Source: Planctomycetota bacterium (lineage in GTDB: Bacteria > Planctomycetota > B15-G4 > JADJEK01). From it: DNA of 47,714 nucleotides. Numbering within the stretch: position 1 is the stretch's first letter; every line of letters starts with the position of its first letter. Below are positions 21,278 through 35,330 of this stretch, piece after piece. The stretch covers positions 1 to 47,714 of the forward strand of contig JAZDLC010000196.1 in assembly GCA_043802345.1 (NCBI GenBank). Direction: 5' to 3'. Both the position numbers and the translations under genes were made by a program. Below the pieces are notes generated by a model. The model had not been told where the DNA came from, did not search any database, and saw only the letters and a program-made list of their open reading frames with translations.

Positions 21278-22012
21278 TCAGAGTTTCTCGATCCAGTCCT
21301 CGATGCGCCCCGGTTGCCCGTCGGCATTCAACACCACGGCGAGACGCGGCACGAAGGCGTCGTCCTCGCCAAGCGGCGTATTGATGAGCAGGCCGCCGAG
21401 AAGAACCGTCGGTTCGGAGGGCGCCATCCTGCGAATGATGTCTCCGAGCACGCCATCGATCACCTCGAAGAGGCGTTCCGTCGCCGCCAGGACCGGATCC
21501 TCATGCCCGAGGATCGCCTCCTTCGAGTAGGTGAGGGCGCTCTCGAGCAGATACTGCTCGGCATCGAGCGGCTCGAACCGGGGTTCGTACCCGGCATCCT
21601 GCTGGATCTTCCCGAGGTACCCCATCAGCTCCCCGCAGTCGGGGCTCTCGTCCTGCTGCCCTTCGCGCTCGACCTGCCCCCACGTCCCGTCCCGACCGAG
21701 TCCCACGTGCGGGCCGAAGAGGATGAAGAGACGCCCGTCATCCTCCGGGACATGGTGGTGGCAGGCGGAGAAACCGGTGATGCCCGCCGACGGGTACCCT
21801 CCCAGACCGGCGAGGTCGAAGTTCTCGCCCCAAAACTTGACGAACTCGCTTACCGACCTCTGGTTGACTTCATCGCGGCAGAGGGCGTTCGCGAACAAGG
21901 TGTTCTCGGGAGTGAAGCCCCGCCCCAGCAGGTAGCTCTGCGACCGCTCGACCAGCTCCGGCCAGCTCAGCGCGCTTGGGTACTTCTCTCGCAGTTCCTC
22001 GGCCCAATTCAT
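21278..22012 (-). CDS. LCIB/LCIC-like (theta-type) carbonic anhydrase family protein
   Basis: GF..ENTL, CRDE, F.LAGLGGYP..G.TG, HHVP..G, FGPHVG, G.V.R.GQ, CG, D.EQ and LLGG..IN match the LCIB family pattern, including putative Cys/His/Cys Zn ligands. Confidence 0.8.
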   Translation of the reverse strand: MNWAEELREKYPSALSWPELVERSQSYLLGRGFTPENTLFANALCRDEVNQRSVSEFVKFWGENFDLAGLGGYPSAGITGFSACHHHVPEDDGRLFILFGPHVGLGRDGTWGQVEREGQQDESPDCGELMGYLGKIQQDAGYEPRFEPLDAEQYLLESALTYSKEAILGHEDPVLAATERLFEVIDGVLGDIIRRMAPSEPTVLLGGLLINTPLGEDDAFVPRLAVVLNADGQPGRIEDWIEKL

Positions 22013-22275
22013 CTTGGAGTCCTCAGCTCGGCAAGGTCACCTGAAACGCCCGCGCTCCACACCGGAGCGGTGCGATGATTCTACGGGTTTCCTGAGGCTC
22101 CGACAGCGAGTCGCCAGGTTTCCGCCCGGGACTCTCCCCTTCGCGGGTCCGAGGCGGGGGTAGAGGACCGGGGTGCAAGCGACTACGATTCGGGGCGTTC
22201 GAGCTTCCGGACGGTTCGGGGCGACCGCCTGAAGCGCTCGCCGACACGTTTCCGGCACCCAGGAAAGGTCGCACG

Positions 22276-24321
22276 ATGGCAATGGAAACCGAGGGGCACT
22301 TCTACTCGGAGGATCCGTCGGAAGGTCCGCCGGACGCGCGCACGGACCTCCGTGGCGTGGACTACTTCTTCCTTGGCAACGGCCTCGTCCAGGGCGCCGT
22401 CCAGGTCGATCCGTCCGGAGCCGGGACCCCGCTCGGCCTGCTCCTGCTGCACCCGGAATGGTTCGGGCCGAAGCGCACCGCGCTGACCTTCGATCCCGAG
22501 ACGGGCCTCGCCGGAACGGTGGTTCGGATCGAGCATCCCGAGGGGACGGCGGAACCTCTGAGTGGCGAGGTTGACGCGAGATGGACTGACGTCGACGGCA
22601 TTCCGGCTGTCCGCGCAGGATGGCGGAGCGGCGACCTCTCGGTGACCGAGACGTTCTACTGCCCGGACCGCACAAGGGCCCGTCTGGTGCGCGAGGTGTC
22701 GCTCCGCTCAAAGAGCGCGTTGGAGGGAGTCCTCGCGACCGGGCAGGGGGAGCGGCGCCTGGAGCGGACGGTCGTTCTCCGGCCGGAAGAGCCGGTGGTG
22801 GTGCTGTTGCGGTACGACCTGGAGGAACGGGGGCAGGACGTGACCTGGAGCCTGGACTGGCACGAGGAGGAAGGTCCCGATCCGGAGGCGGTTCGCTACT
22901 GGACGGAGCTGGCGGCCCTTTCCTTCGATTCCGGCGCGCGGGCGGAGCTGCTCGACCGCCTGTACTCGTCCGCCAGGCGCCAACTCCCGGCGGTCCTTTC
23001 CGCCGCGGGCGCCATGGACGGCAGCATCTGGCAGTACAACCTGGAGTGGGTCCGTGACCAGGCGAACGTCGTCGTCTCCCTCTGTCAGATCGGAGCTGTC
23101 GAGACCGCGCGGAAGATGCTCGCCAGGCTGCTCGGGAAGTTCGTCACCGAGGCTGGCGACACGGTCGATTCCAGCAGGTGGCGACCTCCCGCAGAAGTAG
23201 AGCTGGACCAGAACGGCATTCTTCTCATGACGGCGAAGGCATACGTCGACTGGACCGGCGATCTCGCGCTCGTTGCAGCGCACTGGCCGAAGATCCGCGC
23301 GCTGGCCGAATACCCTCTCCGGGACGTCTTCCGGCACGGGGAGTCGGGTCTCCTGAAGAACCAGCGCGAGTACTGGGAGCGGCATGCGGCGTACGGCATC
23401 GAGGAGGGGATGGAGCTGACCTACCAGCTCTTCGTGTCGCTCGGTCTCCTTGACGCGGCGGAACTGGCCGGCCTCCTCGGTCACCCCGAGGACGCCTCGC
23501 GCTGGCGAGCCGAGGCGGACCGCCTGAAACAGGCGATGCTCTTTGACCCGAAATTTTCCCTGGTGGAGCGCGGGATCTTCATCAAGCGCCGGCGTCCGGA
23601 CGGAACGGTCCAGGAGACGGTCACGCCGACCGCGGTGCTCCCGGTCGGGTTGGGGATCGACCATGCCGGCCCGCACTACCTGAATCCGGACACGGCGTCC
23701 GTCCTGCCGATCGTGACGGAGTTCATCGACCCCCGGGGCGACCTGGCGCGCCGGACGCTGGAGGATGTGGAGAGGCTCTGGAACCAGACCTGGGACGGCG
23801 GCGGCTACTGCCGCTACAACGTGACCTCCGAGGCCGATTCGCCCGGCCCCTGGCCGTTCGCCACCCTGTTCGTGGCCCGCGCGTATCTCGAGGCCGGCGA
23901 CGACCGCAAGGTCTGGCGTATCCTGGAATGGCTTGGCTCGGTCCCCTCCGGCGGCAAGGCATGCACCTGGTTCGAGTTCTACGGCGAGAAGAAGGTGCCC
24001 CCCTGTCCGCCGATCGGCATCACCCCGTGGACCTGGGCCGAGGTCCTGACCTTTTTCATCCACCATCTTCTCGGCGTACGGCCCGGCCCGGACATGCTCG
24101 AGCTCCGGCCGCGCCTCCTGGAGGGCTTGGACCGGGTCGAGGCGTCGCTTGCCGTGCGCGGCCATCGCCTCCACCTCACCCTGCGCCGCGCGGAAGAAAA
24201 CGAGGCAGAGGGCGCGTACCTCGACGGGGCCGCGCAGCCCCTGCGGGAGGGGCGGTTCCGGACCCCGATACCAGAGAAGGACCTGCGGGTGGAGCTCGTC
24301 TTGGAGAGGAAGAACCGATGA
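22276..24321 (+). CDS. GH15-like (alpha/alpha)6 glycoside hydrolase
   Basis: Y..EWVRD, ELDQNG, EYWE, GGY.RY and GPWP.ATL motifs resemble glucoamylase/trehalase GH15. No signal peptide. Confidence 0.65.
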   Translation: MAMETEGHFYSEDPSEGPPDARTDLRGVDYFFLGNGLVQGAVQVDPSGAGTPLGLLLLHPEWFGPKRTALTFDPETGLAGTVVRIEHPEGTAEPLSGEVDARWTDVDGIPAVRAGWRSGDLSVTETFYCPDRTRARLVREVSLRSKSALEGVLATGQGERRLERTVVLRPEEPVVVLLRYDLEERGQDVTWSLDWHEEEGPDPEAVRYWTELAALSFDSGARAELLDRLYSSARRQLPAVLSAAGAMDGSIWQYNLEWVRDQANVVVSLCQIGAVETARKMLARLLGKFVTEAGDTVDSSRWRPPAEVELDQNGILLMTAKAYVDWTGDLALVAAHWPKIRALAEYPLRDVFRHGESGLLKNQREYWERHAAYGIEEGMELTYQLFVSLGLLDAAELAGLLGHPEDASRWRAEADRLKQAMLFDPKFSLVERGIFIKRRRPDGTVQETVTPTAVLPVGLGIDHAGPHYLNPDTASVLPIVTEFIDPRGDLARRTLEDVERLWNQTWDGGGYCRYNVTSEADSPGPWPFATLFVARAYLEAGDDRKVWRILEWLGSVPSGGKACTWFEFYGEKKVPPCPPIGITPWTWAEVLTFFIHHLLGVRPGPDMLELRPRLLEGLDRVEASLAVRGHRLHLTLRRAEENEAEGAYLDGAAQPLREGRFRTPIPEKDLRVELVLERKNR

Positions 24322-26846
24322 CACAGCAAGCTTCTCGCGGGACGATCCACCTGGTCTGCAATTCCCACATCGATCCGGTCTGGCTCTGGGAGTGGGAAGA
24401 GGGCGCCGCCGAGGCGCTGTCGACCTTCCGTGCCGCGGCCGATCTGTGCGAGGAGTTCGAGGGGTTCATCTTCAACCACAACGAGGCGATCCTCTACGAA
24501 TGGGTCGAGCGGTACGAGCCCGCCCTGTTCGAGCGGATCCAGCGGCTTGTCCGGGAGGGGCGGTGGCACATCATGGGCGGGTGGTATGTGCAGCCCGACT
24601 GCAACATGCCGTCGGGGGAGTCATTCGTGCGCCAGATTCTCCTGGGCAAGCGGTACTTCCGGGACCGCTTCTCTGTCGACGTGACCACGGCGATCAACTT
24701 CGATCCGTTCGGACACACCCGCGGTCTGGTGCAGATCCTGAAGCGGAGCGGCTTCGATTCGTACATCTTCTGCCGTCCTTCCGTGAAGGAGAGCGCCGTG
24801 CCGGCGCCGGAGTTCACCTGGCTCGGGTATGACGGCTCCGAGATCTTCGCCACGCTGGCCGTCCTGCACTACAACTCGGCGCCGGGAGAGGCGCGGGCGA
24901 AGCTCGAGCAGTGGCTGGACGCACGTCCGGAGAAGGGCGTCAGCCTGCTCCTCTGGGGAGTCGGCAACCACGGCGGCGGGCCGTCGCGGCAGGATCTTCG
25001 CGACCTGGCCGCCGCGATCGGCGGGACGCAGGAGTTCGAGATCCGCCACTCCACTCCCGAGGAGTATGTGGCGGACTTTCGGGCGAAGGAACCCGATCCG
25101 CCGCTTCATGCGGGCGACCTCAATCCCTGGGCCGTCGGCTGCTATACCTCGATGAGCCTGGTCAAGCAGAGGCACCGGCGGCTGGAGAATGAACTGTTCA
25201 CCACCGAGAAGATGGCCGCCACGGCGGCAGTTCAGGGCCTGCTCCCTTATCCAGCGGACGGACTCAGGAGCGGAGCGCGCGACCTGGCGTCCTGCCAGTT
25301 CCACGACAGCCTCCCCGGATCGTCGATCCAGGCGGTCGAGGGGACGGTCCTCCGCACCCTCGACCACGGCCTGGAAACGCTCGCGCGGATCAAGGCGCGC
25401 GCCTTCTTCGCCCTGGCCTCGGGACAGCGCGCGGCCCGCGACGGGGACTTCCCCCTTCTCATCATGAACCCCCATCCGTTTCGGGTGGAGACGCTCATCG
25501 AGTGCGAACTGCAACCGCAGTGGCCGCACAAGACGAGCGGCTTCCTGCGGCCGGTGCTGTTTCAGGGCAGAAAGGAGATCCCGGTCCAGGCGGAGAAGGA
25601 GCGGTGCAACATCGACGAGGACCACCGGAAGCGCGTTGCCTTCCGCGCCACCCTCGAGCCGGGTCGAATGAACCGTTTCGACTGCAAGCTGGTGATGCAG
25701 AGGCAGAGGCCGGCCCGGCTCCTGCGGGAGAGGCACGGGCGCATTCGCTTCCATTCCGGTGAGTTGCACGTGGAGATCAACTGCAGGACCGGGCTGGTCG
25801 ACCGCCTCTCGGTCCTTGGGGTCGACCTCCTGGCGAAGAGCGCCTTCTCGCCGCTCGTGATGATGGATGACCCCGATCCCTGGGGGATGAGGGTCGACTC
25901 GTTCCGGCGGCGGGCCGGCGCCTTCCGGCTGCTCGGGAGGAAGGCCGGCGCGCGCTTCTCCGGCATCCCGGCCGTGGACCTCCCCTCGGTGCGGGTGATC
26001 GAGGATGGCCCCGTCCGCGGCGTGGTCGAGGCGGTCTTTGGGTTTGGCGACTCCTGCCTTTGCCAGCAGTACAAGCTTCCCAGGGAGGGGACCGAGTTCG
26101 AGGTGGAGACCCGCGTCTACTGGAACGAGAAGGACCGGATGCTGAAGCTGTCCGTCCCCACGCGTTTCAAGGACGCGAGGCTGCTCGGGCAGGTGGCGTA
26201 CGGCGTGGCCGACCTTCCTCGAGGAGGGAAGGAAGGGGTGGCCCAGCAGTGGGTCGGGCTGGTCTCGGAGGAAGCCGGCCTGGCGTTGACCTGCATCAAT
26301 GACGGCACCCACGGCGCCGATATGGCCCGTGGGGAGCTGCGCCTCTCGCTCTTGCGCTCGCCGGCCTACGCCGGCCACCCCACGAGCCCTGACTGCGGGA
26401 TCGTCCAGAAGGACCGGTTCACGCCCCGCATGGACCAGGGAGAGCGGTGCTTCCGCTTCTGGTTCAACGCCGGACCGGCGGGCGACCGGCTGCAGAGGAT
26501 CGACCGCGAGGCGCTGGCGCGGAACGCGCCGCCGATGGCGCTCTGCTTCTTCCCGCCGGGAGCTGGAAAGAAGCCGGTCGCCGGCGCCGTCCTCAGTGAT
26601 CCGGTCGTCCAGCTCGCGGCGCTGAAACAGGGGGAAGACGGCGACGGCCTGATCATCCGCCTCTTCGAGCCGACCGGGAAGCCGAGAAGCACCACCCTGT
26701 CGCTCCCCTTCGCCCGTGCGAGGACCAGGGTGCGCCTGAAGGCCTTCGAGATCCGGACCCTCCGTTTCGACCTGAAGACCGGCCGTTTCAGCGAGACCGA
26801 TCTCCTCGAGCGGCCGATCGAGTCGATGCTATCTCCTGATCTTTAA
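24318..26846 (+). CDS. Alpha-mannosidase, glycoside hydrolase family 38
   Basis: Start at ATG 24318 (ATGA overlap); HLVCNSHIDPVWLW, GGWYVQPDCNMPSGESFVRQ, DPFGH, GVGNHGGGP, QFHD.LPGS and RLSLLRSP motifs. Confidence 0.93.
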   Translation: MTQQASRGTIHLVCNSHIDPVWLWEWEEGAAEALSTFRAAADLCEEFEGFIFNHNEAILYEWVERYEPALFERIQRLVREGRWHIMGGWYVQPDCNMPSGESFVRQILLGKRYFRDRFSVDVTTAINFDPFGHTRGLVQILKRSGFDSYIFCRPSVKESAVPAPEFTWLGYDGSEIFATLAVLHYNSAPGEARAKLEQWLDARPEKGVSLLLWGVGNHGGGPSRQDLRDLAAAIGGTQEFEIRHSTPEEYVADFRAKEPDPPLHAGDLNPWAVGCYTSMSLVKQRHRRLENELFTTEKMAATAAVQGLLPYPADGLRSGARDLASCQFHDSLPGSSIQAVEGTVLRTLDHGLETLARIKARAFFALASGQRAARDGDFPLLIMNPHPFRVETLIECELQPQWPHKTSGFLRPVLFQGRKEIPVQAEKERCNIDEDHRKRVAFRATLEPGRMNRFDCKLVMQRQRPARLLRERHGRIRFHSGELHVEINCRTGLVDRLSVLGVDLLAKSAFSPLVMMDDPDPWGMRVDSFRRRAGAFRLLGRKAGARFSGIPAVDLPSVRVIEDGPVRGVVEAVFGFGDSCLCQQYKLPREGTEFEVETRVYWNEKDRMLKLSVPTRFKDARLLGQVAYGVADLPRGGKEGVAQQWVGLVSEEAGLALTCINDGTHGADMARGELRLSLLRSPAYAGHPTSPDCGIVQKDRFTPRMDQGERCFRFWFNAGPAGDRLQRIDREALARNAPPMALCFFPPGAGKKPVAGAVLSDPVVQLAALKQGEDGDGLIIRLFEPTGKPRSTTLSLPFARARTRVRLKAFEIRTLRFDLKTGRFSETDLLERPIESMLSPDL

Positions 26847-27063
26847 GAGCCGCCGAACGTCCTGAATCAAGGAACCGGGCCGCGCAGGCCTCCACCATTC
26901 GGGAGATTCGAGATCCTGGACCGTATTGGGTGCAGGAGTTGACCGTGATGCCTTTTCCTTCCTTGGCGCAAACGGATCGACAGCGGCGACGGTGAACGGG
27001 TAGTCTCGGTGCTGCTCGACTGCTGCGGAAGACAAACCAGAACAACCAGAACGAGGAACCAAG

Positions 27064-27612
27064 ATGTTGAAGTTCGCCTTTATCGTGCTTTCCCTGGGTC
27101 TTTTCGCCCTCCCGGCGACGGCCCAGAAGATGGGGATGATCAACCGCAACGCCCCGGCCATCGAACAGAAGATGGACCTGGGGTCGACCGGGACGGTCTC
27201 GCTGAAGTACACCGGCATTACCTGGGGAGCAGGCGCCTGGGCCAAGGCTCTCGAAGACGAGGGAAAGCGCGACCAGGCGCGGCAGCGGATCAACCAGACG
27301 GCCGACAAGAGCCCGCTCGGCTCGTTCGAGTGCTCAAAGGACGTGCAGATCGACGACGTCCTCGTTCCGGCCGGAAAGTACGACCTGGCCTTCAAGCTGG
27401 ACGACGACTTCGCCTGGCAGATCGCCCTCGCCAAGGAGGGCAGCTCGATCAGCATTCCCCTGACCCTCACGCAGGCGGAGGAGGCGAGCAAGCGGCTGGT
27501 CGTGAGCGTGTACGCCGGTGATGAGGACTTCACCGGCGGCCTGTACGTCGCCTTCGGCATGGATTCCGGCATGCTGAGCATCACCCCGGCGCCCGAGGAA
27601 GACCAGCGCTGA
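27064..27612 (+). CDS. Secreted DUF2911-like protein
   Basis: Signal peptide; P..EQK..., SLKY, and F..SKDV.I....VPAGKY.L pattern typical of DUF2911. Confidence 0.6.
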   Translation: MLKFAFIVLSLGLFALPATAQKMGMINRNAPAIEQKMDLGSTGTVSLKYTGITWGAGAWAKALEDEGKRDQARQRINQTADKSPLGSFECSKDVQIDDVLVPAGKYDLAFKLDDDFAWQIALAKEGSSISIPLTLTQAEEASKRLVVSVYAGDEDFTGGLYVAFGMDSGMLSITPAPEEDQR

Positions 27613-27769
27613 GAAGACCCTGCCGCCGGCGCTCCGCCAGGGCACAGGGCATTCGTGAATCTCGGCTGGACCGGCCGCGTCGTGCCCGCGCTGGAGGCGG
27701 CCGGCGGCGGTCCTCAGACCCGCGGGGCGCTGCGCTGGCCGGACAGGAGGAAGTCGGGGGACCACCAGT

Positions 27770-27793
27770 CCGCCCGGCGGCGGTTCTTTTTTT
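27770..27793 (+). terminator. Possible intrinsic terminator
   Basis: Short stem ccgcc-(cggc)-ggcgg followed by ttcttttttt, between the DUF2911 gene and kamA. Confidence 0.4.
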
Positions 27794-27933
27794 GTCTATA
27801 TGCCCTTGTTGTTTGCGAAAGAGCTAGTTTACTTACCGCGCTTAAATCGGGCGGTGGGCGTTCATGATCATTCGGTCCTGTTCAGGCCGGGGTGTGCGTT
27901 GTACCGACCGACATTCGGGAACAGTGAAGCACA

Positions 27934-29274
27934 ATGATCTCATCCCAATCATCGGACGATTCCGAAGCCTCACCAGACGAACCTGAACCTCCGGGGCCCC
28001 CCAGCCCCCGAACTACCCCCCACCCCTCAACCAGGCTTCACCCACGAATCAGCGCACCGGCGCTGTTACCTGCGTCCAGCGCGGAGCAGTTCCGCCGGAC
28101 ATTCTTTCCCGAGGCAACCGCCGAGGATTGGAGCGACTGGCGGTGGCAGCTCCGCAAGCGGCTCCGGAGCCCGGAGGAGTTCCAGAGGGTCTTCGACCTC
28201 TCCACCGAGGAACTCGCTGCGTTGCAGGGGATGCGCGGCAAGTTTCCGGCCGCCGTCACGCCTTTTTACGCCTCGCTCCTCAATCGCACGGATCCCGGGC
28301 AGCCGCTGCGCCGCTCGGTGATTCCTACGCTGAGTGAATTCGAGACACACTACGGGGAAGCGGACGATCCGCTCGCCGAGGACGCGTGCAGTCCGGTCGA
28401 GGGATTGGTGCACCGCTACCCCGACCGGGCGCTGTTCCTGGTCTCGGACCACTGCGCTGTCTACTGCCGTTACTGCACCCGCGCGCGGGTGGTGGGAAGC
28501 GGCGCGATGTCGCCCAACGTGAAGCGCTGGGAAGGCGCCTTCCGGTATCTGGAAGCGCATCAGGAGGTCCGCGACGTCCTGATCTCGGGCGGCGATCCGC
28601 TGACCCTCTCGGACGACAAGCTGGACTACCTGCTGTCAAGGCTGAGGGCCATTCCACACCTGGAGTTCATCCGGATCGGCACCAAGGTCCCCGCGGTCCT
28701 TCCGCAGAGGGTCACTCCCGAGCTGACCCAGGTCCTCAGCCGCTATCACCCGCTGTGGATGAGCCTGCACTTCACCCACGGCGACGAGTTGGTGCCGGAG
28801 GTGGTCGCCGCCTGCGAGCGGCTGGCGAACGCCGGCATCCCCCTCGGCAGCCAGACGGTGCTGCTGCGCGGCATCAACGACAACGTGCCGACGCTGAAAC
28901 GCCTGTTCCACGGGCTTCTGCGGGCGCGCGTGCGGCCCTACTACCTGTACCAGTGCGACCCGATCAGCGGTTCGGCCCATCTCCGGACGCCGGTGGAGAC
29001 CGGACTGGAACTGATCGCGGGGCTGCGCGGCCACACGACCGGCTATGCCGTGCCGCAGTTCGTCATCGACGCGCCCGGTGGCGGCGGCAAGATACCCCTC
29101 ATGGCCGACGCCGTGCTCGGCCGGGATGGCGATGACCTCCTGCTCCGCAACTGGGCAGGCGGGACCTTCCGCTATCCCGACCCGCTGCCGGAGCCGGTCC
29201 TGGCCGTCACAAGGCGGGGGCGGAACGGGAGCGGCCGGCGCGGCACGCCGCGGAACGGCGGAGTCCGGCGATGA
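27934..29274 (+). CDS. kamA: KamA family radical SAM protein (lysine 2,3-aminomutase type)
   Basis: W.DW.WQ, DPLAED, HRYPDR, CAVYCRYCTR (CxxxCxxC), ISGGDPL, RIGTK.P..LPQR, QTVLL.GIND, YYLYQCD and VIDAPGGGGK (PLP Lys) motifs. Confidence 0.93.
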   Translation: MISSQSSDDSEASPDEPEPPGPPSPRTTPHPSTRLHPRISAPALLPASSAEQFRRTFFPEATAEDWSDWRWQLRKRLRSPEEFQRVFDLSTEELAALQGMRGKFPAAVTPFYASLLNRTDPGQPLRRSVIPTLSEFETHYGEADDPLAEDACSPVEGLVHRYPDRALFLVSDHCAVYCRYCTRARVVGSGAMSPNVKRWEGAFRYLEAHQEVRDVLISGGDPLTLSDDKLDYLLSRLRAIPHLEFIRIGTKVPAVLPQRVTPELTQVLSRYHPLWMSLHFTHGDELVPEVVAACERLANAGIPLGSQTVLLRGINDNVPTLKRLFHGLLRARVRPYYLYQCDPISGSAHLRTPVETGLELIAGLRGHTTGYAVPQFVIDAPGGGGKIPLMADAVLGRDGDDLLLRNWAGGTFRYPDPLPEPVLAVTRRGRNGSGRRGTPRNGGVRR

Positions 29275-29786
29275 GCGAGGAATCTGGCGATCCGGAGCCG
29301 TTTTGTGCGCGGTGCGCGCGGCACCAGGCGACCTGTTGCCAGAATACGGACATCTACGTCACGCGCGGCGACGTCCGGCGCATCGAGGCCGGCACCGGCC
29401 GCACGGACTTTTGCGACTACCGGCTGGCGCGCAATCCTGCCTACCTCGGCCAGGACGACGACCCCCTCTGGAGGCGGCTCGTCTTTCGGGCTGACGGCAC
29501 GCGTCGCGTGTTGCGGCAGACGAGCGGCGGCGATTGCACCTTCTTGTCCAGCTCGGGCTGCACTCTGCCGAGCGACATCCGTCCGGTGATTTGCCGGCTC
29601 TGTCCCTTCGAATACACCGCGGCCGGTGTCACCGGCCTTGCCCCCGGCTGCCCGACCCAGTTGCTACGTCCCGGCGAGGACCTGATCGGCATTCTCGGCA
29701 TGAGCCGGGAGCGGGCCGAGGAACTGCTCAGGGCGCTCTATGTCGAACTTCTCGAGGAGGAGGCACTACAGTGCGCATCGGTCTGA
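29271..29786 (+). CDS. YkgJ family cysteine-cluster protein
   Basis: CARC..HQATCC, GDCTFL...GC and RPVICRL.PF motifs. ATGA overlap with kamA. Confidence 0.85.
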   Translation: MSEESGDPEPFCARCARHQATCCQNTDIYVTRGDVRRIEAGTGRTDFCDYRLARNPAYLGQDDDPLWRRLVFRADGTRRVLRQTSGGDCTFLSSSGCTLPSDIRPVICRLCPFEYTAAGVTGLAPGCPTQLLRPGEDLIGILGMSRERAEELLRALYVELLEEEALQCASV

Positions 29787-30772
29787 CCTACGACCTCCGG
29801 GACGCCTATCTGGCCGAAGGCCTGGGCGAGGAGGAGACCGCCGAGTTTGATCGCGCCGACACCATCGAAGCGATCGAGGACGCCCTGAAGCGCCTCGGTT
29901 TCGAGGTGGATCGGATCGGCCGCGCCAAGGAGTTGATGGCGCGGCTCCTGAAGGGCGACCGTTTCGACCTGGTCTTCAACATCGCCGAGGGACTGTACGG
30001 CAGCAGCCGCGAATCGCAGGTGCCGGCGATCCTCGACGCCTTCCGCATTCCATACACATTCTCCGACGCAACCGTGCTGGGACTGTCCCTGGACAAGGCC
30101 TTCACCAAGCATGTGCTCCGCGACGCCGGCCTTCCCACCGCCGATTTCCGGGTGGTGGAGGACCTGCACGACCTGGAGCAGGTGGACCTGCCGTTCCCCC
30201 TGTTCCTGAAGCCGGTAGGCGAAGGCACGGGCAAGGGGGTCACCTCCGAGTCGAAGGTCACTTCCAGGGCCGGGCTGATCGCGCTGGGCACGTCGCTGCT
30301 GCGGCACTTCTCGCAGCCTGTCCTGGTCGAGGAGTTCCTGCCGGGACGCGAATTCACGGTGGGCATCGTGGGGACCGGCGCGGCCACCGAAGCGGTCGGC
30401 ACCGCCGAGATCGTGCTGAAAGCCGGCGCCGAGAAGGACGTCTACTCCTACGTCAACAAGGAGCGTTGCGAGGAGCTGGTCGAGTACCGGCTGGTCACCG
30501 ACAGCATGGCCCAGGAGGCAGCCCGCCTGGCGGTGCTCGCCTGGCGCGCCATGCGCTGCCGCGACGGTGGCCGCATCGACCTCAGAGCCGACGTCGACGG
30601 CAACCTGAAGCTTCTCGAGCTGAACCCGCTGGCCGGTCTGCACCCCGAGCACTCCGACCTGCCGATCATCTGCACCATGGTGGGGATGACGTATATCGAA
30701 CTGATCGACCGCATCACCAGGTCGGCCCTCGCGCGCATCGGGCGCGAGCCGCCGGCGCAGCGCGGCAAGTAG
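29771..30772 (+). CDS. D-Ala-D-Ala ligase-like ATP-grasp protein (1)
   Basis: GTG start after RBS gaggagg; DLVFNIAEG, IPYTFSD, LDK, FPLFLKP..EGTGKG, VLVEEFLPGREFTVG, RIDLR and ELNPLAGL motifs. Lacks the Ddl GG.S.E motif. Confidence 0.88.
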   Translation: MRIGLTYDLRDAYLAEGLGEEETAEFDRADTIEAIEDALKRLGFEVDRIGRAKELMARLLKGDRFDLVFNIAEGLYGSSRESQVPAILDAFRIPYTFSDATVLGLSLDKAFTKHVLRDAGLPTADFRVVEDLHDLEQVDLPFPLFLKPVGEGTGKGVTSESKVTSRAGLIALGTSLLRHFSQPVLVEEFLPGREFTVGIVGTGAATEAVGTAEIVLKAGAEKDVYSYVNKERCEELVEYRLVTDSMAQEAARLAVLAWRAMRCRDGGRIDLRADVDGNLKLLELNPLAGLHPEHSDLPIICTMVGMTYIELIDRITRSALARIGREPPAQRGK

Positions 30773-30778
30773 TCCAGC

Positions 30779-31771
30779 TTGAAGATTGCGATTCTGTTCA
30801 ACGAAGTGGACCGGGACGCCCCGGCCGACGAACGCGACGTGCTCGACCAGATGGAGGTGATCAGCGACGCCGTCTGCGAGCTTCGCCACCTTTCTGTCAC
30901 CATTCCAGTGGGTCTCGACCTGTACGCCCTCCGTTCGAGGCTTCTGCTGGAGCGCCCGGACGCCGTGTTCAACCTGGTCGAGTCCCTGGCCGGTTCGGAC
31001 CGGTTGATCCTGACCGTGCCGGCCCTGCTCGAAACGCTTCAGCTGCCTTTTTCCGGGGCTCCCCTGGAGGCGCTCCTGAAGAGCACCAACAAGGTGCTGG
31101 CCAAGATCCTCATGCGAGCGCTGGGACTCCCCACCGCCGACTGGTCGGAGGGGGAAGACCTGGAGCGGGTGTTCCGCCCCGGGGCCCGCGTCATCGCCAA
31201 ATCGAGGTGGAGCCACGGCTCGCTGGGGCTGGAGGAGGATGCGGTCCTGAAGGCAGCCGAGCCCGACAAGATCCGCGCCCGGCTGCGCCGGGACGAGGGG
31301 GACTGCTTCGTCGAGGAGTACATCGAAGGGAGGGAATTCAACCTCTCCGTACTGGGTGGCGCAGCGGGGCCGGAGGTGCTGCCCCTGGCGGAGATCCGCT
31401 TCGACGAGTTCGCGCCGGGGCGGCCGCGCATCGTCGGGTACCGCGCGAAGTGGGATCCCGATTCACTCGAGTCCCACGGGACGCCGCGGACCTTCACGTT
31501 CGGGGGGCGGGACAGCGAGCTGCTCGACAGGTTGCGGCATGCGGCCCTGGCGTGCTGGCGGGGCTTCGGCCTGCGCGGCTACGCGCGGGTCGACTTCCGG
31601 GTCGATGAGGCCGGCAATCCCTACATCCTGGAAGTGAACGCCAACCCATGCCTGTCCCGGGACGCCGGCTTCCTGGCCGCGGCGGCTGAAGCCGGGCTCG
31701 ATTCCACCGCTGTGGTCGCGCGTATCCTGGCCGATGCGCCCGGCGCGGGCGGCCGTTTGAAAGGCAACTGA
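30779..31771 (+). CDS. D-Ala-D-Ala ligase-like ATP-grasp protein (2)
   Basis: TTG start; PDAVFNLVES, LPFSG, K...HGSLG, FVEEYIEGREF, Y.AKW, GYARVDFR and LEVNANP motifs. Confidence 0.88.
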   Translation: MKIAILFNEVDRDAPADERDVLDQMEVISDAVCELRHLSVTIPVGLDLYALRSRLLLERPDAVFNLVESLAGSDRLILTVPALLETLQLPFSGAPLEALLKSTNKVLAKILMRALGLPTADWSEGEDLERVFRPGARVIAKSRWSHGSLGLEEDAVLKAAEPDKIRARLRRDEGDCFVEEYIEGREFNLSVLGGAAGPEVLPLAEIRFDEFAPGRPRIVGYRAKWDPDSLESHGTPRTFTFGGRDSELLDRLRHAALACWRGFGLRGYARVDFRVDEAGNPYILEVNANPCLSRDAGFLAAAAEAGLDSTAVVARILADAPGAGGRLKGN

Positions 31772-31773
31772 AA

Positions 31774-33519
31774 ATGTTCCGGGTCCGACGAGTTTTTGAC
31801 GACCTGCTGCCGGAGGACGCCGATGCCGTCCGCCAGGTTACGCAGATCCTGAAAGAGCAGTTCCCGGATCTCCGTCCCAGGGAGATCCAGGCGATTCCGA
31901 AGAAGCTCAAGGATCCGGTCGGCGCCGGGTGGCGCACCATCCTGTTCGTGGCGGAGAAGCAGCGCGAGGTCCGCGGCTTCGCCCTGGTGCTGCACGCTCC
32001 GGACGAGAGCTTCTGCTACCTCGACTACATTGCCGCGGGGATGACCCGCACCGGCTCGGGAGTCGGTGGCGCCCTCTACCAGCGAGTGCGGGAGGAAGTG
32101 CGCCTGCTCGGCGCCGTCGGACTGTTCCTCGAGTGCCTTCCGGACGACCTCGAGCACTGTCCCGAGCCGGAACTGCGCAAGGAGAACGCCCGGCGACTGC
32201 GTTTCTACGAGAACTACGGGGCACGTCCGCTCGACGGCAACGCCTACCAGACTCCGATCGATCCAGGCGATACCCACATGCCGGTGCTGGTGTACGACGG
32301 GCTCGATCCCGACCGGCCCCTGGCCAGGACGCGGGCGCGGCGCGTGGTGCGGGCGATCCTGGAGCGGAAGTACGGTGACCTGTGCCCGGCCCTGTACGTC
32401 GACAAGGTGGTGGCGTCCTTCAAGGACGATCCGGTGAAGCTGCGCCCCTACCTTTACGTGAAGGAACCCGCCGCCGCCCTGCCGGGGACCGGCCCACTCC
32501 CTGTCGAGCATCAGATCGCGCTCACCATCAACAAGGACCATGAGATCCACCATGTACGTGAGCGCGGCTACGTCGAATCGCCGGTACGGATCGCGACCAT
32601 CCAGCGCGAGGTCGACAAGCTGCCGTTCATGACCACTCTGCCGGTCCGGAGCTTCCCGGACAGGCACGTGGAGGCGGTCCATGACCGCGCCTTCCTCAGC
32701 TACTTGAAGACGGTGTGCGACAACACGCCGGAGGGGGAGTCGGTCTACCCGTACGTCTTCCCGATCCGCAACGCGGCCCGGCCGCCGAAGGAACTCGCCG
32801 TACGTGCCGGTTACTTCTGCATCGACACCTTAACGCCGCTGCACCGGAACGTCTGGCGCGCGGCCAGAGGCGCGGTGAACTGCGCGCTGACCGTCGCGGA
32901 CGCCCTGCTCCAGGGCCACCGGCTGGCGTATGCGCTGGTCCGCCCGCCGGGGCATCACGCCGAGACCCGGACGTTCGGCGGCTTCTGCTACCTGAATTCC
33001 ACCGCCATTGCCGCGCAGTATCTCGCGGGCCGCGGACGGGTGGCGATCCTCGACATCGACTACCATCACGGCAACGGGCAGCAGGAGATCTTCTACCGGC
33101 GCAGAGATGTGCTCACCATCTCCATCCACGGCCACCCGCGGTTCGCCTACCCGTACTTCAGCGGCTTCGAGGACGAACGCGGCGAGGGGGAGGGCACGGA
33201 ATTCAACCGCAACTATCCGCTGGCCGAGGCCACCACGCCGGAGCAGTACGCGGCCACGCTGCACCGCGCGCTGGGGCGAATCCACTCCTTCAAGCCGACA
33301 GCGCTGGTGGTGGCGCTGGGACTCGACACCGCGCAGGGAGACCCGACCGGAACCTGGTCGCTGCGTCCCAAGAACTTCGAGGAGAACGGCCGGCAGATCG
33401 GTCTGCTGCGCCTGCCCACGCTGGTGGTGCAGGAGGGGGGATACCGCACGCGAACCCTGGGAATCAACCTGCGCAACTTCCTGTTGGGACTGCGTCAGGG
33501 AATGCTGGAGGCCGGATGA
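31774..33519 (+). CDS. GNAT acetyltransferase domain fused to histone deacetylase-family (acetylpolyamine amidohydrolase-like) domain
   Basis: N-terminal V.GFA, YLDYIA, G.GVGGALY and RFYE.YGA (GNAT). C-terminal ESP.RI, RPPGHHA, GGFCYLN, DIDYHHGNG, SIHG, LG.D and QEGGY (HDAC). Confidence 0.9.
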   Translation: MFRVRRVFDDLLPEDADAVRQVTQILKEQFPDLRPREIQAIPKKLKDPVGAGWRTILFVAEKQREVRGFALVLHAPDESFCYLDYIAAGMTRTGSGVGGALYQRVREEVRLLGAVGLFLECLPDDLEHCPEPELRKENARRLRFYENYGARPLDGNAYQTPIDPGDTHMPVLVYDGLDPDRPLARTRARRVVRAILERKYGDLCPALYVDKVVASFKDDPVKLRPYLYVKEPAAALPGTGPLPVEHQIALTINKDHEIHHVRERGYVESPVRIATIQREVDKLPFMTTLPVRSFPDRHVEAVHDRAFLSYLKTVCDNTPEGESVYPYVFPIRNAARPPKELAVRAGYFCIDTLTPLHRNVWRAARGAVNCALTVADALLQGHRLAYALVRPPGHHAETRTFGGFCYLNSTAIAAQYLAGRGRVAILDIDYHHGNGQQEIFYRRRDVLTISIHGHPRFAYPYFSGFEDERGEGEGTEFNRNYPLAEATTPEQYAATLHRALGRIHSFKPTALVVALGLDTAQGDPTGTWSLRPKNFEENGRQIGLLRLPTLVVQEGGYRTRTLGINLRNFLLGLRQGMLEAG

Positions 33520-34016
33520 TGAACGATGGAAACCTGCGCTTTCGCGCCGAGCCGGGAGCCGACGGCTGCGAGATCGTGCGTGAGATCACGATGAGCAGCG
33601 GCTACTTCAACGAGGAGGAGGTGGAGGTCGCCGTCTCCCTGGTCGCCGAACGCCTGGAGAAGGGGGAAGCGAGCGGGTACTACTTCCGCTTCGCCGAACG
33701 GGACGGGCGCGCGGTCGGCTACACCACCTTCGGCCCGATCGCCGGCACCGACCAGCGGTACGACCTGTACTGGATCGCTGTTGCCGAAGAGGAGCGGGGG
33801 ACGGGCATCGGCAAGGTACTGCTCAAGGAAACCGAGCAGGCGATCCTCGCCGCCGGCGGCGCGCGGATCTTCGTGGAGACCAGTTCGCGTCCCGACTACG
33901 TCTCGACCCGGCGCTTCTACGAGGCGACCGGCTACTCTCACGTCGTCACGATCGAGGGCTTCTACCGCAAGGGGGACGGGAAGGCGCTCTACGTGAAGAT
34001 CCTGCGAGAGGACTAA
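33516..34016 (+). CDS. GNAT family N-acetyltransferase
   Basis: ATGA overlap with the previous stop; YDLYWIAV....RG.GIG..LL, VETSS...Y..TRRFYE..GY motifs. Confidence 0.9.
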   Translation: MMNDGNLRFRAEPGADGCEIVREITMSSGYFNEEEVEVAVSLVAERLEKGEASGYYFRFAERDGRAVGYTTFGPIAGTDQRYDLYWIAVAEEERGTGIGKVLLKETEQAILAAGGARIFVETSSRPDYVSTRRFYEATGYSHVVTIEGFYRKGDGKALYVKILRED

Positions 34017-34301
34017 AGAGCGAGCCGCCGGCACCCTTGATCGGGTAACGCCCATCCTGGAAGTCAGCAACAGATCGTCCTCCAGGGAAACCAGGAAACC
34101 AGGAAGTGGATTGCTGCTGTTGGCCGGGAACCTCCAACATGCCAGCGCGTTCGACTTCTCGGACCACACAGCGGCAACCGAACCGCCCCGAAAAAGCAGA
34201 AGAAAAAGTACTGACTTCTCTGCCGGACTGCGATTCCCCCTGTGACGGGCGCTGTGTGCCGCCCTCGCAATGAGAAGCCTCGGTCCAGAAGGAGTTCAGC
34301 C

Positions 34302-34535
34302 ATGAATCAGCGAAACGGCCTCCTGTGTCTGACTGATACAGCAGCAATTACGGCGTTGTCTGTGCGCCGGCGACCAGCCTGCTGGATCTGGGCGGCTGTG
34401 CTGCTTTGGCTCGCGCCGGCCGTCATGGCCGGTGAGACCACCTGCGCGTCGGTCGACCCGACCGGGGCGCAGGCGAACGGCCGCCTGGTAACCTTCGAGT
34501 CGTTTGCGACGAATCTCGTGTCCGAGTTGGAGTAG
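34302..34535 (+). pseudogene. Remnant of a secreted TolB/PD40-like repeat protein
   Basis: RBS aaggag and signal peptide, then T..SVD.TGAQANG and R.V.FES.ATNLV, two pieces of the repeat unit joined directly, then a stop. Confidence 0.5.
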
Positions 34536-34578
34536 GGGACATCCCTGATATTCGTACTTGCGCTCGCGCAAGCGACGG

Positions 34579-34696
34579 AGGTACGGTGCCGCGACAGATT
34601 CCTCCGGATTCATGAGACAGCGCGGCGGATTGCCGGGAGCCTGTCAACTACGAGGAGCCGATCGAATCCGGTGGAAAGTGTCGCGGCACCGTACCC
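34579..34696. mobile_element. MITE copy 2 (~118 bp), ISAzo13-related ends
   Basis: Perfect 17 bp IR ggtacggtgccgcgaca/tgtcgcggcaccgtacc plus inner IR ttcctccggattc/gaatccggtggaa; colinear with 12421-12537. Confidence 0.85.
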
Positions 34697-35128
34697 TCAG
34701 GGCACGACGGTGATTGGCACGGGGCTCATCTGCACCAGCGAGCCCGACACGCTGCCGAAGAGGAGCAAGGCCACGAGCGAGCGTCCGCGGCGGCCGGTGA
34801 ACATCTGATCGACGTCTCGCTCCTTGGCCAGCGCGCACAGGCATTCGCTCGTGTGGCCATGTCTGACCACCAGTTCGATCCCGAGATCGCCGCCGCCCAG
34901 CTCGTCGGCGAGTGGCTGCAAGATGCCGGACGTGGCATCTGCGATCTCCTTGCGGTGTTCGACGGGCCGTTCCGAGAGCTCCTCCGGCGTGAGGAGCTCG
35001 TAGGGGGACCAGTCCACGATGTGGGCCAGGATCAGCCGTGCGCCCTCGGCCCGGGCCCTTCTTGCGGCGTACTGAGCGGCGCGCCGCGCGCCCTCGCTCC
35101 CATCGGCTCCCACCAGAAAGACTGCCAT
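34697..35128 (-). CDS. Universal stress protein (UspA family)
   Basis: LVGADGSEGA.RA, L.LAHI, G.RGRS....LLFGSVS..LV..SP.PITVVP motifs. Confidence 0.93.
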   Translation of the reverse strand: MAVFLVGADGSEGARRAAQYAARRARAEGARLILAHIVDWSPYELLTPEELSERPVEHRKEIADATSGILQPLADELGGGDLGIELVVRHGHTSECLCALAKERDVDQMFTGRRGRSLVALLLFGSVSGSLVQMSPVPITVVP

Positions 35129-35330
35129 CAAATCACCTCGCGCGTTCTCTTGGTTCGGATCCGGATCCTGGAGGCACAATAGTCGGCCCGCCGCCTTGCG
35201 GCAAGGTCGTTGCGCGGCGGGTCACAGGCCGGGATTCCTCGGGGCGCAAGCCAGGGCCGTCGGATTCGACGCACAGGAACATTGAGTTTGGGGCGCCGCA
35301 GATGACCGCCGTGAGCCGATAAGGGAGTCC

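Follow-up and report, generated by a model that had tools for sequence, protein, structure and literature searches.

A six-gene operon of a Planctomycetota bacterium with a predicted and apparently undescribed pathway for beta-lysine ligation and acetylation

What would a bacterium make with a lysine 2,3-aminomutase-like enzyme that is encoded together with two ATP-grasp ligases, two acetyltransferases and a deacetylase? The question is raised by a six-gene operon on contig JAZDLC010000196.1 of a Planctomycetota bacterium (assembly GCA_043802345.1), of which positions 1 to 47,714 were analysed; this whole stretch of 47,714 nucleotides is referred to below as the window. The six genes (Table 1) encode a KamA-family aminomutase, a YkgJ-type protein, two Ddl-like ATP-grasp ligases (AG1 and AG2), a protein in which a GNAT domain is fused to an HDAC-fold deacetylase (GNAT-HDAC) and a small GNAT acetyltransferase. 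We propose, with a probability of roughly 0.55, that they encode a self-contained cytoplasmic pathway in which lysine is converted to beta-lysine, carried through two ATP-dependent amide ligations and N-acetylated, with an acetyl switch of the acetylpolyamine amidohydrolase (APAH) type. Such a conserved pathway of beta-lysine ligation and acetylation, built from known enzyme families and lying outside any characterised pathway, is apparently undescribed.

The main new result is a chain of natural gene fusions, with YkgJ as its cassette-specific accessory. The 120 long AG1 homologues listed comprised 78 AG1-AG2 fusions, 19 KamA-AG1 fusions, 19 double ligases whose second half was nearer to AG1, two AG1-AG2-GNAT proteins, one YkgJ-AG1-AG2 protein and one YkgJ-AG1 protein. 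Long homologues of the small GNAT (n = 36) were either GNAT-HDAC-GNAT proteins (6) or ATP-grasp-GNAT fusions (30), and the ligase part of the latter matched AG2 best in 26 cases and AG1 slightly better in 4. A profile search for the YkgJ subfamily returned 83 representative clusters at E <= 1e-30, and four of its best 150 representatives were fused (one KamA-YkgJ, two YkgJ-AG1, one of them truncated, and one YkgJ-AG2). All six products are joined somewhere in nature by the chain KamA-(YkgJ)-AG1-AG2-GNAT-(GNAT-HDAC). Judged by gene architecture, this chain shows one shared pathway; it also suggests a physical multi-enzyme complex, which the six products probably form, and, more weakly, an order running from KamA to AG1 to AG2 to GNAT. 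It gives a concrete order for reconstitution in vitro.

Other genomes carry this gene set as well, and the operon is therefore more than a chance arrangement. Conserved synteny, on which an earlier note on this DNA had made its proposal depend, was found at two levels. The six-gene order was kept in two of 40 relatives (G001 and G039, at 47-58% identity), which were also the only two of the 40 with a full-length GNAT-HDAC protein. In a species-representative genome collection, 596 stretches carried a relative of the fusion protein at E <= 1e-3, and the best 80 were analysed, a core being defined as KamA, AG1, AG2 and the small GNAT and counted if it lay no more than 8 kb from the fusion gene. 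These 80 loci matched practically the full length of the fusion protein (52-60% identity), and the full core stood beside it in 41, a partial core in 13 (mostly at contig ends) and none in 26; for the 37 loci flanked by 5 kb or more on each side the respective figures were 25, 3 and 9. Eight gene orders occurred among the core loci, the most frequent being KamA-AG1-AG2-GNAT-HDAC-small GNAT (18 loci), the same with the last two genes exchanged (11 loci) and the order of the window with YkgJ (5 loci). Three loci from Bacteroidales metagenome-assembled genomes (L042, L043 and L060) have GNAT-HDAC between KamA and AG1, the position of YkgJ in the window, with AG1, AG2 and the small GNAT following. 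Where the fusion gene stood alone, an AG1 orthologue was found elsewhere in the genome in five of the five cases tested, with AG2 adjoining in four.

Relatives of the fusion protein were numerous: 7879 of 8000 scored candidates had E <= 1e-20, and the best 120 listed covered 99-100% of the query, 118 of them at 58-69% identity besides the query itself and one 92% relative. Sources named among those listed included Geoalkalibacter, Desulfuromonas (including Desulfuromonas versatilis), Vulgatibacter (Vulgatibacter incomptus), Desulfococcaceae, Calditrichia and KSB1, and the titles of the best 80 loci named Pirellulaceae, Thermoguttaceae, Phycisphaeraceae, Desulfobacterota of several orders, Dehalococcoidales, Bacteroidales, Woeseia, alpha-proteobacteria, Synergistaceae, Lentisphaeria and Chitinispirillaceae. 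Of 42 genomes from the taxonomic order of the window, 15 had an AG1-like gene (E <= 1e-40), and the six-gene form was present in 3 of 41-42. A close four-gene core that lacks YkgJ and GNAT-HDAC occurs in G006, and the cores of G002 and G017 are more divergent. The window carries a widespread four-gene core together with two accessories, YkgJ and GNAT-HDAC. All-against-all clustering of open reading frames (ORFs) from 83 loci revealed no further conserved neighbour, be it a transporter, regulator, carrier, exporter or target gene; ABC ATPase, HlyD-like, SDR and CBS/CorC-like neighbours were each seen in at most 11 of the 83 loci, at varying positions. Our impression was that the names of many carriers refer to marine, saline or soda-lake taxa or samples (Woeseia, Desulfonatronovibrio, Desulfohalobiaceae, Nitrococcus, 'saline' biofilms and salar soil), and freshwater and reactor metagenome-assembled genomes are also among them.

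KamA is a predicted lysine 2,3-aminomutase. It matched LAM_C and Radical_SAM (Pfam) and scored 337.9 bits on the family model TIGR00238 (cut-off 199.2). Among the more specific aminomutase models it scored best on the AblA equivalog TIGR03820, below the cut-off (441.4 against 525.4 bits), and it was likewise below the cut-offs of the glutamate (395.9 against 650), arginine (380.5 against 600) and EpmB (263.8 against 369.3) equivalogs. An alignment over 363 residues was obtained with the Clostridium lysine 2,3-aminomutase 2A5H (E 3e-124), in which the YQCD and VIDAPGGGGK motifs of KamA matched D293, D330 and K337 of 2A5H (D342, D379 and K386 of KamA). In lysine 2,3-aminomutase, D293 and D330 hold the epsilon-ammonium group of the substrate. 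Both lysine-specificity aspartates, which the earlier note had recognised by motif, were confirmed by this alignment and were kept, together with the CxxxCxxC cysteines (C174, C178 and C181) and the K386 that binds pyridoxal phosphate (PLP), in 45 of 45 cassette KamAs. An N-terminal extension of about 50 residues (window 27934-28090), rich in proline, serine and glutamate, has no counterpart in 2A5H; no start codon lies between the preceding stop and the ATG at 27934, which is the only one upstream of the conserved part, and homologues align from about residue 52. G001 and G039 likewise have long orthologous KamA ORFs (442 and 470 amino acids).

Both ligases matched Dala_Dala_lig_C (PF07478; 87.9 bits for AG1 and 65.3 bits for AG2), and their relatives in the PDB were Ddl and Van enzymes only (best Ddl E-values 1.6e-24 and 9.4e-17, respectively). 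The possibility, raised in the earlier note, that they are ordinary Ddl enzymes found no support: against the Ddl cut-offs of NF002378 and TIGR01205 (243 and 245.65 bits), AG1 scored 149.6 and 116.6 and AG2 91.5 and 84.3, and a better Ddl is encoded elsewhere in the genome (contig C436, 166.7 bits on PF07478). For comparison, the ATP-binding, magnesium-binding and catalytic residues of Ddl are those that we take to be K97, K144, E180, K215, R255, D257, E270 and N272. K109, K147, E187, E194, K230, R268, D270, E283 and N285 of AG1 were invariant in 54 of 54 sequences, while K105, K141, E179, E186, K224, R270, D272 and N287 of AG2 were kept in 48 of 48 and E285 in 45 of 48. Equivalents of the ATP-binding lysines, the magnesium-binding acidic residues and asparagine and the catalytic arginine are therefore present in both, and both ligases look catalytically competent. 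They share the fold and all of these residues with the Ddl/Van family, but differ from it in scores of about 60% of the cut-offs or less, in their substrate-side residues (AEG..RE and S-D-L-P in AG1, A-K-W and N-x-N-P-C in AG2) and in forming a paralogous pair that is often fused head to tail. AG1 is the ligase that appears to be coupled to KamA, and AG2 the one that appears to be coupled to the small GNAT.

The widespread acetyltransferase-deacetylase fusion is predicted to be an APAH-type deacetylase joined to a GNAT. The closest solved relatives of its HDAC domain were APAHs (6phr, E 1.4e-68; 9gkz, 3men and 3q9b), aligned end to end with E-values of 1e-64 to 1e-68. The motifs RPPGHH (residues 390-395) and EGGY (554-557) and the zinc ligands D427/D429/H431 and D518 were invariant in 18 of 18 fusion homologues, as were G96 and G98 of the glycine loop of the GNAT domain. 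The passages of Graf et al. (2024, PMC11532494) on cluster 4 link RPPGHH and EGGY with polyamine deacetylases that are acetyl-specific, describe the APAH active site as negatively charged and suited to polycations and give a PIS motif after the third zinc ligand and a head-to-head dimer formed through the L1/L2 loops as further marks of the cluster; by the marks given there the domain agrees with APAH cluster 4 in RPPGHH, EGGY and zinc ligands. It shares these with the bacterial APAHs of that cluster (3Q9B, 6PHR and 9GKZ) and, unlike them as they are described in those passages, it is fused to an N-terminal GNAT (elsewhere to a C-terminal GNAT too), has PTG in place of a PIS motif and sits in a beta-lysine operon. 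The small GNAT matched PF00583 at 48.4 bits and is a close relative of 2R7H (E 3.1e-35), a structural-genomics deposit titled 'putative D-alanine N-acetyltransferase'. Neither GNAT matched the AblB model TIGR03827, even at E <= 1.

YkgJ is predicted to be an accessory, cassette-specific subunit. It matched PF03692 at 24.4 bits (cut-off 23), as did 8 of 8 orthologues (best E 2.6e-6), and this generic family was its only assignment, with no match to PHROG families or DUF3109. Of its eight conserved cysteines (C12, C15, C22, C23, C89, C97, C108 and C127), seven were invariant and C15 was present in 7 of 8 orthologues. The AlphaFold2 model had a pLDDT of 84.9, and a Foldseek search of BFVD with this model returned nothing at E <= 0.001, the top weak rows being other CxxCxxCC proteins. 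A complex prediction for KamA (residues 52-430) with YkgJ scored 0.02 against a mark of 0.32, which is no evidence either way. A YkgJ homologue was found in 3 of 41 genomes sampled from the taxonomic order, exactly the three with the six-gene form; the genomes are kin, and the count does not amount to a statistical test. The flagellin lysine N-methylase FliB is said to share the YkgJ domain. A preprint on the YkgJ homologue DpdM (bioRxiv 10.1101/2023.04.13.536721) describes, in its passages on this protein, N-methylation of the aminomethyl group of preQ1 in phage DNA in vivo and proposes two metal sites of four cysteines each. As far as those passages go, the YkgJ of the window is like DpdM in having eight conserved cysteines that can be split 4+4, and the known substrates of DpdM/YkgJ-type proteins are R-CH2-NH2 amines resembling the epsilon-amine of beta-lysine; it is unlike DpdM and other YkgJ proteins in being tied by fusions to an aminomutase/ligase complex. 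If it were a DpdM/FliB-like N-methylase of an R-CH2-NH2 group, its substrate would be the first small molecule for the YkgJ family.

In the proposed pathway, KamA would convert L-lysine to beta-lysine (3,6-diaminohexanoate), as its conserved active-site residues indicate, and AG1 would take beta-lysine directly and form the first ATP-dependent amide bond, a step to which the KamA-AG1 fusions point. The AG1-AG2 fusions and the intact catalytic residues of AG2 are consistent with a second amide bond formed by AG2, after which the small GNAT, coupled to AG2, would N-acetylate the product or the substrate of AG2. The proteins of these steps are the four of the core, and the outcome would be a small N-acetylated beta-lysine amide or peptide. 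GNAT-HDAC would switch an acetyl group on and off at the terminal (epsilon) amine of the beta-lysine moiety; it may protect this amine during activation of the carboxylate to an acyl phosphate, when there would otherwise be a risk of lactam formation, or it may instead recycle or regulate the product. Because beta-lysine is chemically putrescine plus a carboxymethyl group, N-epsilon-acetyl-beta-lysine can be regarded as an analogue of N-acetylputrescine and would be expected to fit an APAH-type pocket. YkgJ would be a metalloprotein on the KamA/ligase complex, acting as a redox or structural partner or scaffold, or as an amine N-methylase.

Several known systems resemble the cassette in part. 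N-epsilon-acetyl-beta-lysine is produced by the AblA/AblB pathway of methanogens and some bacteria (Pflueger et al. 2003, as cited in PMC3543383). As outlined in that source, the likeness lies in a KamA-type aminomutase followed by GNAT acetylation and in a self-contained cytoplasmic cassette without a transporter; the difference is that the window adds two ATP-grasp ligases, a deacetylase and YkgJ, such that the product would have to carry extra amide bonds. The score of KamA below the AblA cut-off and the lack of a TIGR03827 match in either GNAT also place the cassette outside AblAB. The Pelobacter genome paper, in its passages on such genes, gives ablAB only. A link of the cluster to the LysX regulon through Rodionov et al. 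2004 was dropped, as that paper contains neither 'aminomutase' nor 'deacetylase'. No published description or product for this gene set was found in the full-text literature, subscription journals and supplements not being covered, which accords with the statement of the earlier note that no product was known for this combination. In EpmB/EpmA of EF-P modification, as here, a KamA paralogue makes beta-lysine that is then ligated to an amine, but there the ligase is a LysRS paralogue and here an ATP-grasp enzyme, and the cassette KamA falls below the EpmB cut-off. N-acetylglutaminylglutamine amide (NAGGN) is made by Ngg/AsnO, and N-acetylaspartylglutamate (NAAG) by NAT8L with RIMKLA/B. Compared by architecture alone, the cassette is like these systems in combining GNAT acetylation with ATP-grasp ligation into a small capped peptide, sometimes within one polypeptide, and unlike them in that its building block would be beta-lysine made in situ by a radical-SAM enzyme, in having two separate Ddl-like ligases and in having no amidotransferase. 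By analogy with N-epsilon-acetyl-beta-lysine and NAGGN, our guess is that the product is an intracellular compound of the compatible-solute type.

Whether the genome needs the cassette for better-known purposes was considered by profile searches of the contigs of the assembly, which is 81% complete. EpmA (302 bits against a cut-off of 286.9) and EF-P are both present on other contigs, as is a second KamA paralogue (261 bits on TIGR00238; 233 against 369 on the EpmB model), which could be an EpmB that has diverged; contig C488 has a third KamA-like match, a weaker one. The earlier note had stated that efp, epmA and kamDE are absent here, which is right for the window, but efp and epmA do occur in the genome. 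KamD (PF09043) had no match in this genome, nor in any of 14 control genomes, so that its absence carries little weight, and no AblB (TIGR03827) was found in the 81% of the genome that is covered. In addition to the better Ddl, a third Ddl-like ATP-grasp gene lies outside the cassette (G000:C177:28477-29064; L112:6079-7098), with 89.6 bits on PF07478 and scores under the Ddl cut-offs; of its neighbours, only an XAC2610-related protein and an SBBP-repeat protein match a known family. EF-P beta-lysylation and D-Ala-D-Ala synthesis are predicted to be served by these separate genes, and it is therefore unlikely that the cassette serves EF-P modification or cell-wall synthesis.

Four other explanations were weighed against the proposed pathway. 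Beta-lysine has one carboxylate and two amines and so could act as both donor and acceptor, and the cassette contains no gene for a second building block; the ligases might accordingly elongate a homo- or heteropolymer (oligo- or poly-beta-lysine, or a cyanophycin-like nitrogen reserve), with the GNAT capping it and the deacetylase unmasking its amines. A negatively charged APAH-type active site would suit such a polycation, in the terms used in PMC11532494, and AG1 weakly resembles cyanophycin synthetase in its ATP-grasp part (NF010623, 5.4e-11; 7lg5, 1.4e-4). These matches, however, reflect generic ATP-grasp similarity and are far weaker than those to Ddl, no primer, depolymerase or granule protein was found nearby in the clustering of neighbours from 83 loci, and two distinct, separately conserved ligases suit two different bonds better than elongation; a polymer is unlikely. 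Less probable again is a modification of proteins, by EF-P-like beta-lysylation or RimK-type tailing, with the GNAT and HDAC activities forming a protein-lysine acetylation switch. KamA paralogues do feed EF-P beta-lysylation (263.8 bits on the EpmB model here), RimK/TTL-type ATP-grasps modify proteins and AG2 has a weak TTL match (E 0.0035), the best NCBIfam match of the small GNAT is RimI (45 bits against a cut-off of 86.4) and, according to the passages of PMC11532494 on cluster 4, an enzyme of that cluster deacetylated peptides and a protein. Yet EpmA, EF-P and a second KamA are encoded separately, the KamA score is under the EpmB cut-off with EpmA and efp on other contigs, no candidate target gene is conserved beside the cassette, the HDAC domain has its nearest solved relatives among small-molecule enzymes, and the patchy spread given above (15 of 42 genomes for AG1-like genes, 3 of 41-42 for the six-gene form) suits an accessory trait better.

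Beta-lysine is a constituent of streptothricin-type antibiotics, which are inactivated by acetylation of its beta-amine, and ATP-grasp dipeptide antibiotics exist. A bioactive, antibiotic-like beta-lysine peptide, with acetylation as self-protection and the deacetylase as activator, would fit this background and the match of the small GNAT to STAT (E 0.0068, 15.9 bits), but that match is at noise level, no exporter, immunity or regulatory gene is conserved, and the cassette is spread over many phyla and varies little (50-65% identity), unlike typical specialised-metabolite clusters; we place this explanation lower still. It is highly improbable that the ligases are alternative D-Ala-D-Ala-type enzymes remodelling the cell wall, or that the operon is a route of lysine catabolism. 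Ddl and Van ligases are the only named relatives of AG1 and AG2, and KamA starts lysine fermentation in clostridia; against this, both ligases score far under the Ddl cut-offs while a better Ddl lies elsewhere, Mur, Van and peptidase partners are lacking, and carriers include metagenome-assembled genomes of Dehalococcoidales, which have been reported to lack peptidoglycan. Two ATP-consuming ligations are not catabolic, and the missing KamD points the same way, if weakly in view of the controls.

Some observations weigh against the pathway as we propose it. No equivalog cut-off is passed by KamA, and its substrate could therefore be another basic amino acid. Fusions of adjacent genes can come from the loss of a stop codon and do not prove an order of reactions, which is why the fusion chain is weaker evidence for order. 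GNAT-HDAC lacks a core nearby in 9 of the 37 well-flanked loci and is missing from core-only cassettes such as that of G006, and its role may therefore be looser than that of a pathway step. The PIS motif that bacterial APAHs carry, according to the passages of Graf et al. on these enzymes, is replaced by PTG (P524-T525-G526, aligned by eye from the zinc-ligand aspartate), and since the cluster-4 enzyme described there acts on peptides and a protein, a protein substrate is possible for the fusion deacetylase as well. The compatible-solute role is a guess drawn from analogy. Overall, the outline given in the earlier note, in which beta-lysine is made, ligated and reversibly acetylated, is favoured by the conserved synteny, the low Ddl scores of the ligases and the lack of a product in the literature covered; its branch leading to cell-wall or protein amines has become less likely, and the chemistry is what we infer from the enzyme families. 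A bolder form of the proposed pathway, which we put forward only tentatively, is that KamA, in physical contact with two ATP-grasp ligases and a GNAT, forms with them a 'mini assembly line', independent of the ribosome and of non-ribosomal peptide synthetases, for an undescribed class of beta-lysine metabolites, with a GNAT/APAH acetyl switch that masks and unmasks the terminal amine and YkgJ as metallo-partner or N-methylase; it would be widespread in anaerobic and sediment bacteria, and its product might be a masked polycation or a compatible solute that is new.

The six genes form one real operon. When the ORFs and junctions were re-read, the co-oriented, coupled arrangement came out exactly as the earlier note had given it, and its domain assignments for all six products were matched by Pfam/NCBIfam profiles. 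The successive junctions are -4, -16, +6, +2 and -4 nt; the KamA/YkgJ and GNAT-HDAC/small GNAT overlaps are ATGA at 29271 and at 33516, and the 16-nt overlap of YkgJ and AG1 has GTG at 29771 and TGA at 29784-86, with AGGAGGAGG just before. Five of the six frames passed a filter on GC content at third codon positions (0.78-0.86; window GC 65-68%), and that of the small GNAT failed because its stop-to-stop frame overlaps the HDAC gene, the homology support for this frame being the match to 2R7H. A terminator-like hairpin may mark the 5' boundary of the operon, the upstream gene ending at 27612 on its 5' side and an AT-richer stretch separating it from the start of KamA. No sites were found in a sigma-70 scan of 26800-35300, and no GG-N10-GC sigma-54 pattern was seen by eye upstream of KamA.

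Table 1. Features of the operon and related loci (window positions, except for the last row, where positions are on contigs of the same genome, G000)
Feature	Position	Strand	Details
Terminator-like hairpin and T-run	27770..27800	+	Stem 27770-27783, tail TTCTTTTTTT; pattern match only
KamA-family radical-SAM/PLP 2,3-aminomutase	27934..29274	+	446 aa, ATG start
YkgJ-type cysteine-cluster protein	29271..29786	+	171 aa
ATP-grasp ligase AG1, Ddl-like	29771..30772	+	333 aa, GTG start
ATP-grasp ligase AG2, Ddl-like	30779..31771	+	330 aa, TTG start
GNAT-HDAC fusion protein	31774..33519	+	581 aa, ATG start
N-terminal GNAT domain of the fusion	about 31774-32490	+	PF00583, 22.6 bits (weak)
C-terminal HDAC-fold deacetylase domain of the fusion, APAH type	about 32572-33474	+	PF00850, 240 bits, residues 267-567
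Small GNAT acetyltransferase	33516..34016	+	166 aa
EpmA, EF-P and second KamA loci (jointly)	G000:C167:7450-8391 (L111), G000:C165:857-1819 (L110), G000:C48:354-905		

Downstream, 680 nt separate the last stop of the operon from a convergent universal-stress-protein (Usp) gene; a small ORF with a hydrophobic, signal-like N-terminus and without a Pfam match lies in this gap (34303-34535, + strand) and is a putative gene at most. The other neighbours in the window are unrelated, namely a GH38 mannosidase, a GH65C/MGH1-like hydrolase, an M28 peptidase, an LCIB-type carbonic anhydrase and a PEBP protein. The carbonic anhydrase domain is of the LCIB/LCIC beta type (21278-22036, - strand; PF18599, E 1.5e-47), a family best known from algal CO2-concentrating mechanisms. 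The GH65C/MGH1-like hydrolase, a weak assignment (22 bits, cut-off 27), and the GH38 alpha-mannosidase occupy 22276-26846, immediately upstream of the gene that neighbours the cassette. Mannosylglycerate-type solutes occur in planctomycetes, and a second solute-related function in this region near the operon is pure speculation.

If the proposed pathway is correct, many bacterial species across phyla (by record title Planctomycetota, sulfate and metal reducers, Dehalococcoidales, Bacteroidales, Woeseia and others) make a compound derived from beta-lysine that current metabolite maps do not show, and beta-amino-acid metabolism would gain a new branch by its identification. Functions would be given to two large groups of the 'D-Ala-D-Ala ligase family', whose present name would be misleading, the widespread acetyltransferase-deacetylase fusion would be explained, and the enigmatic YkgJ family would possibly gain a biochemical context.

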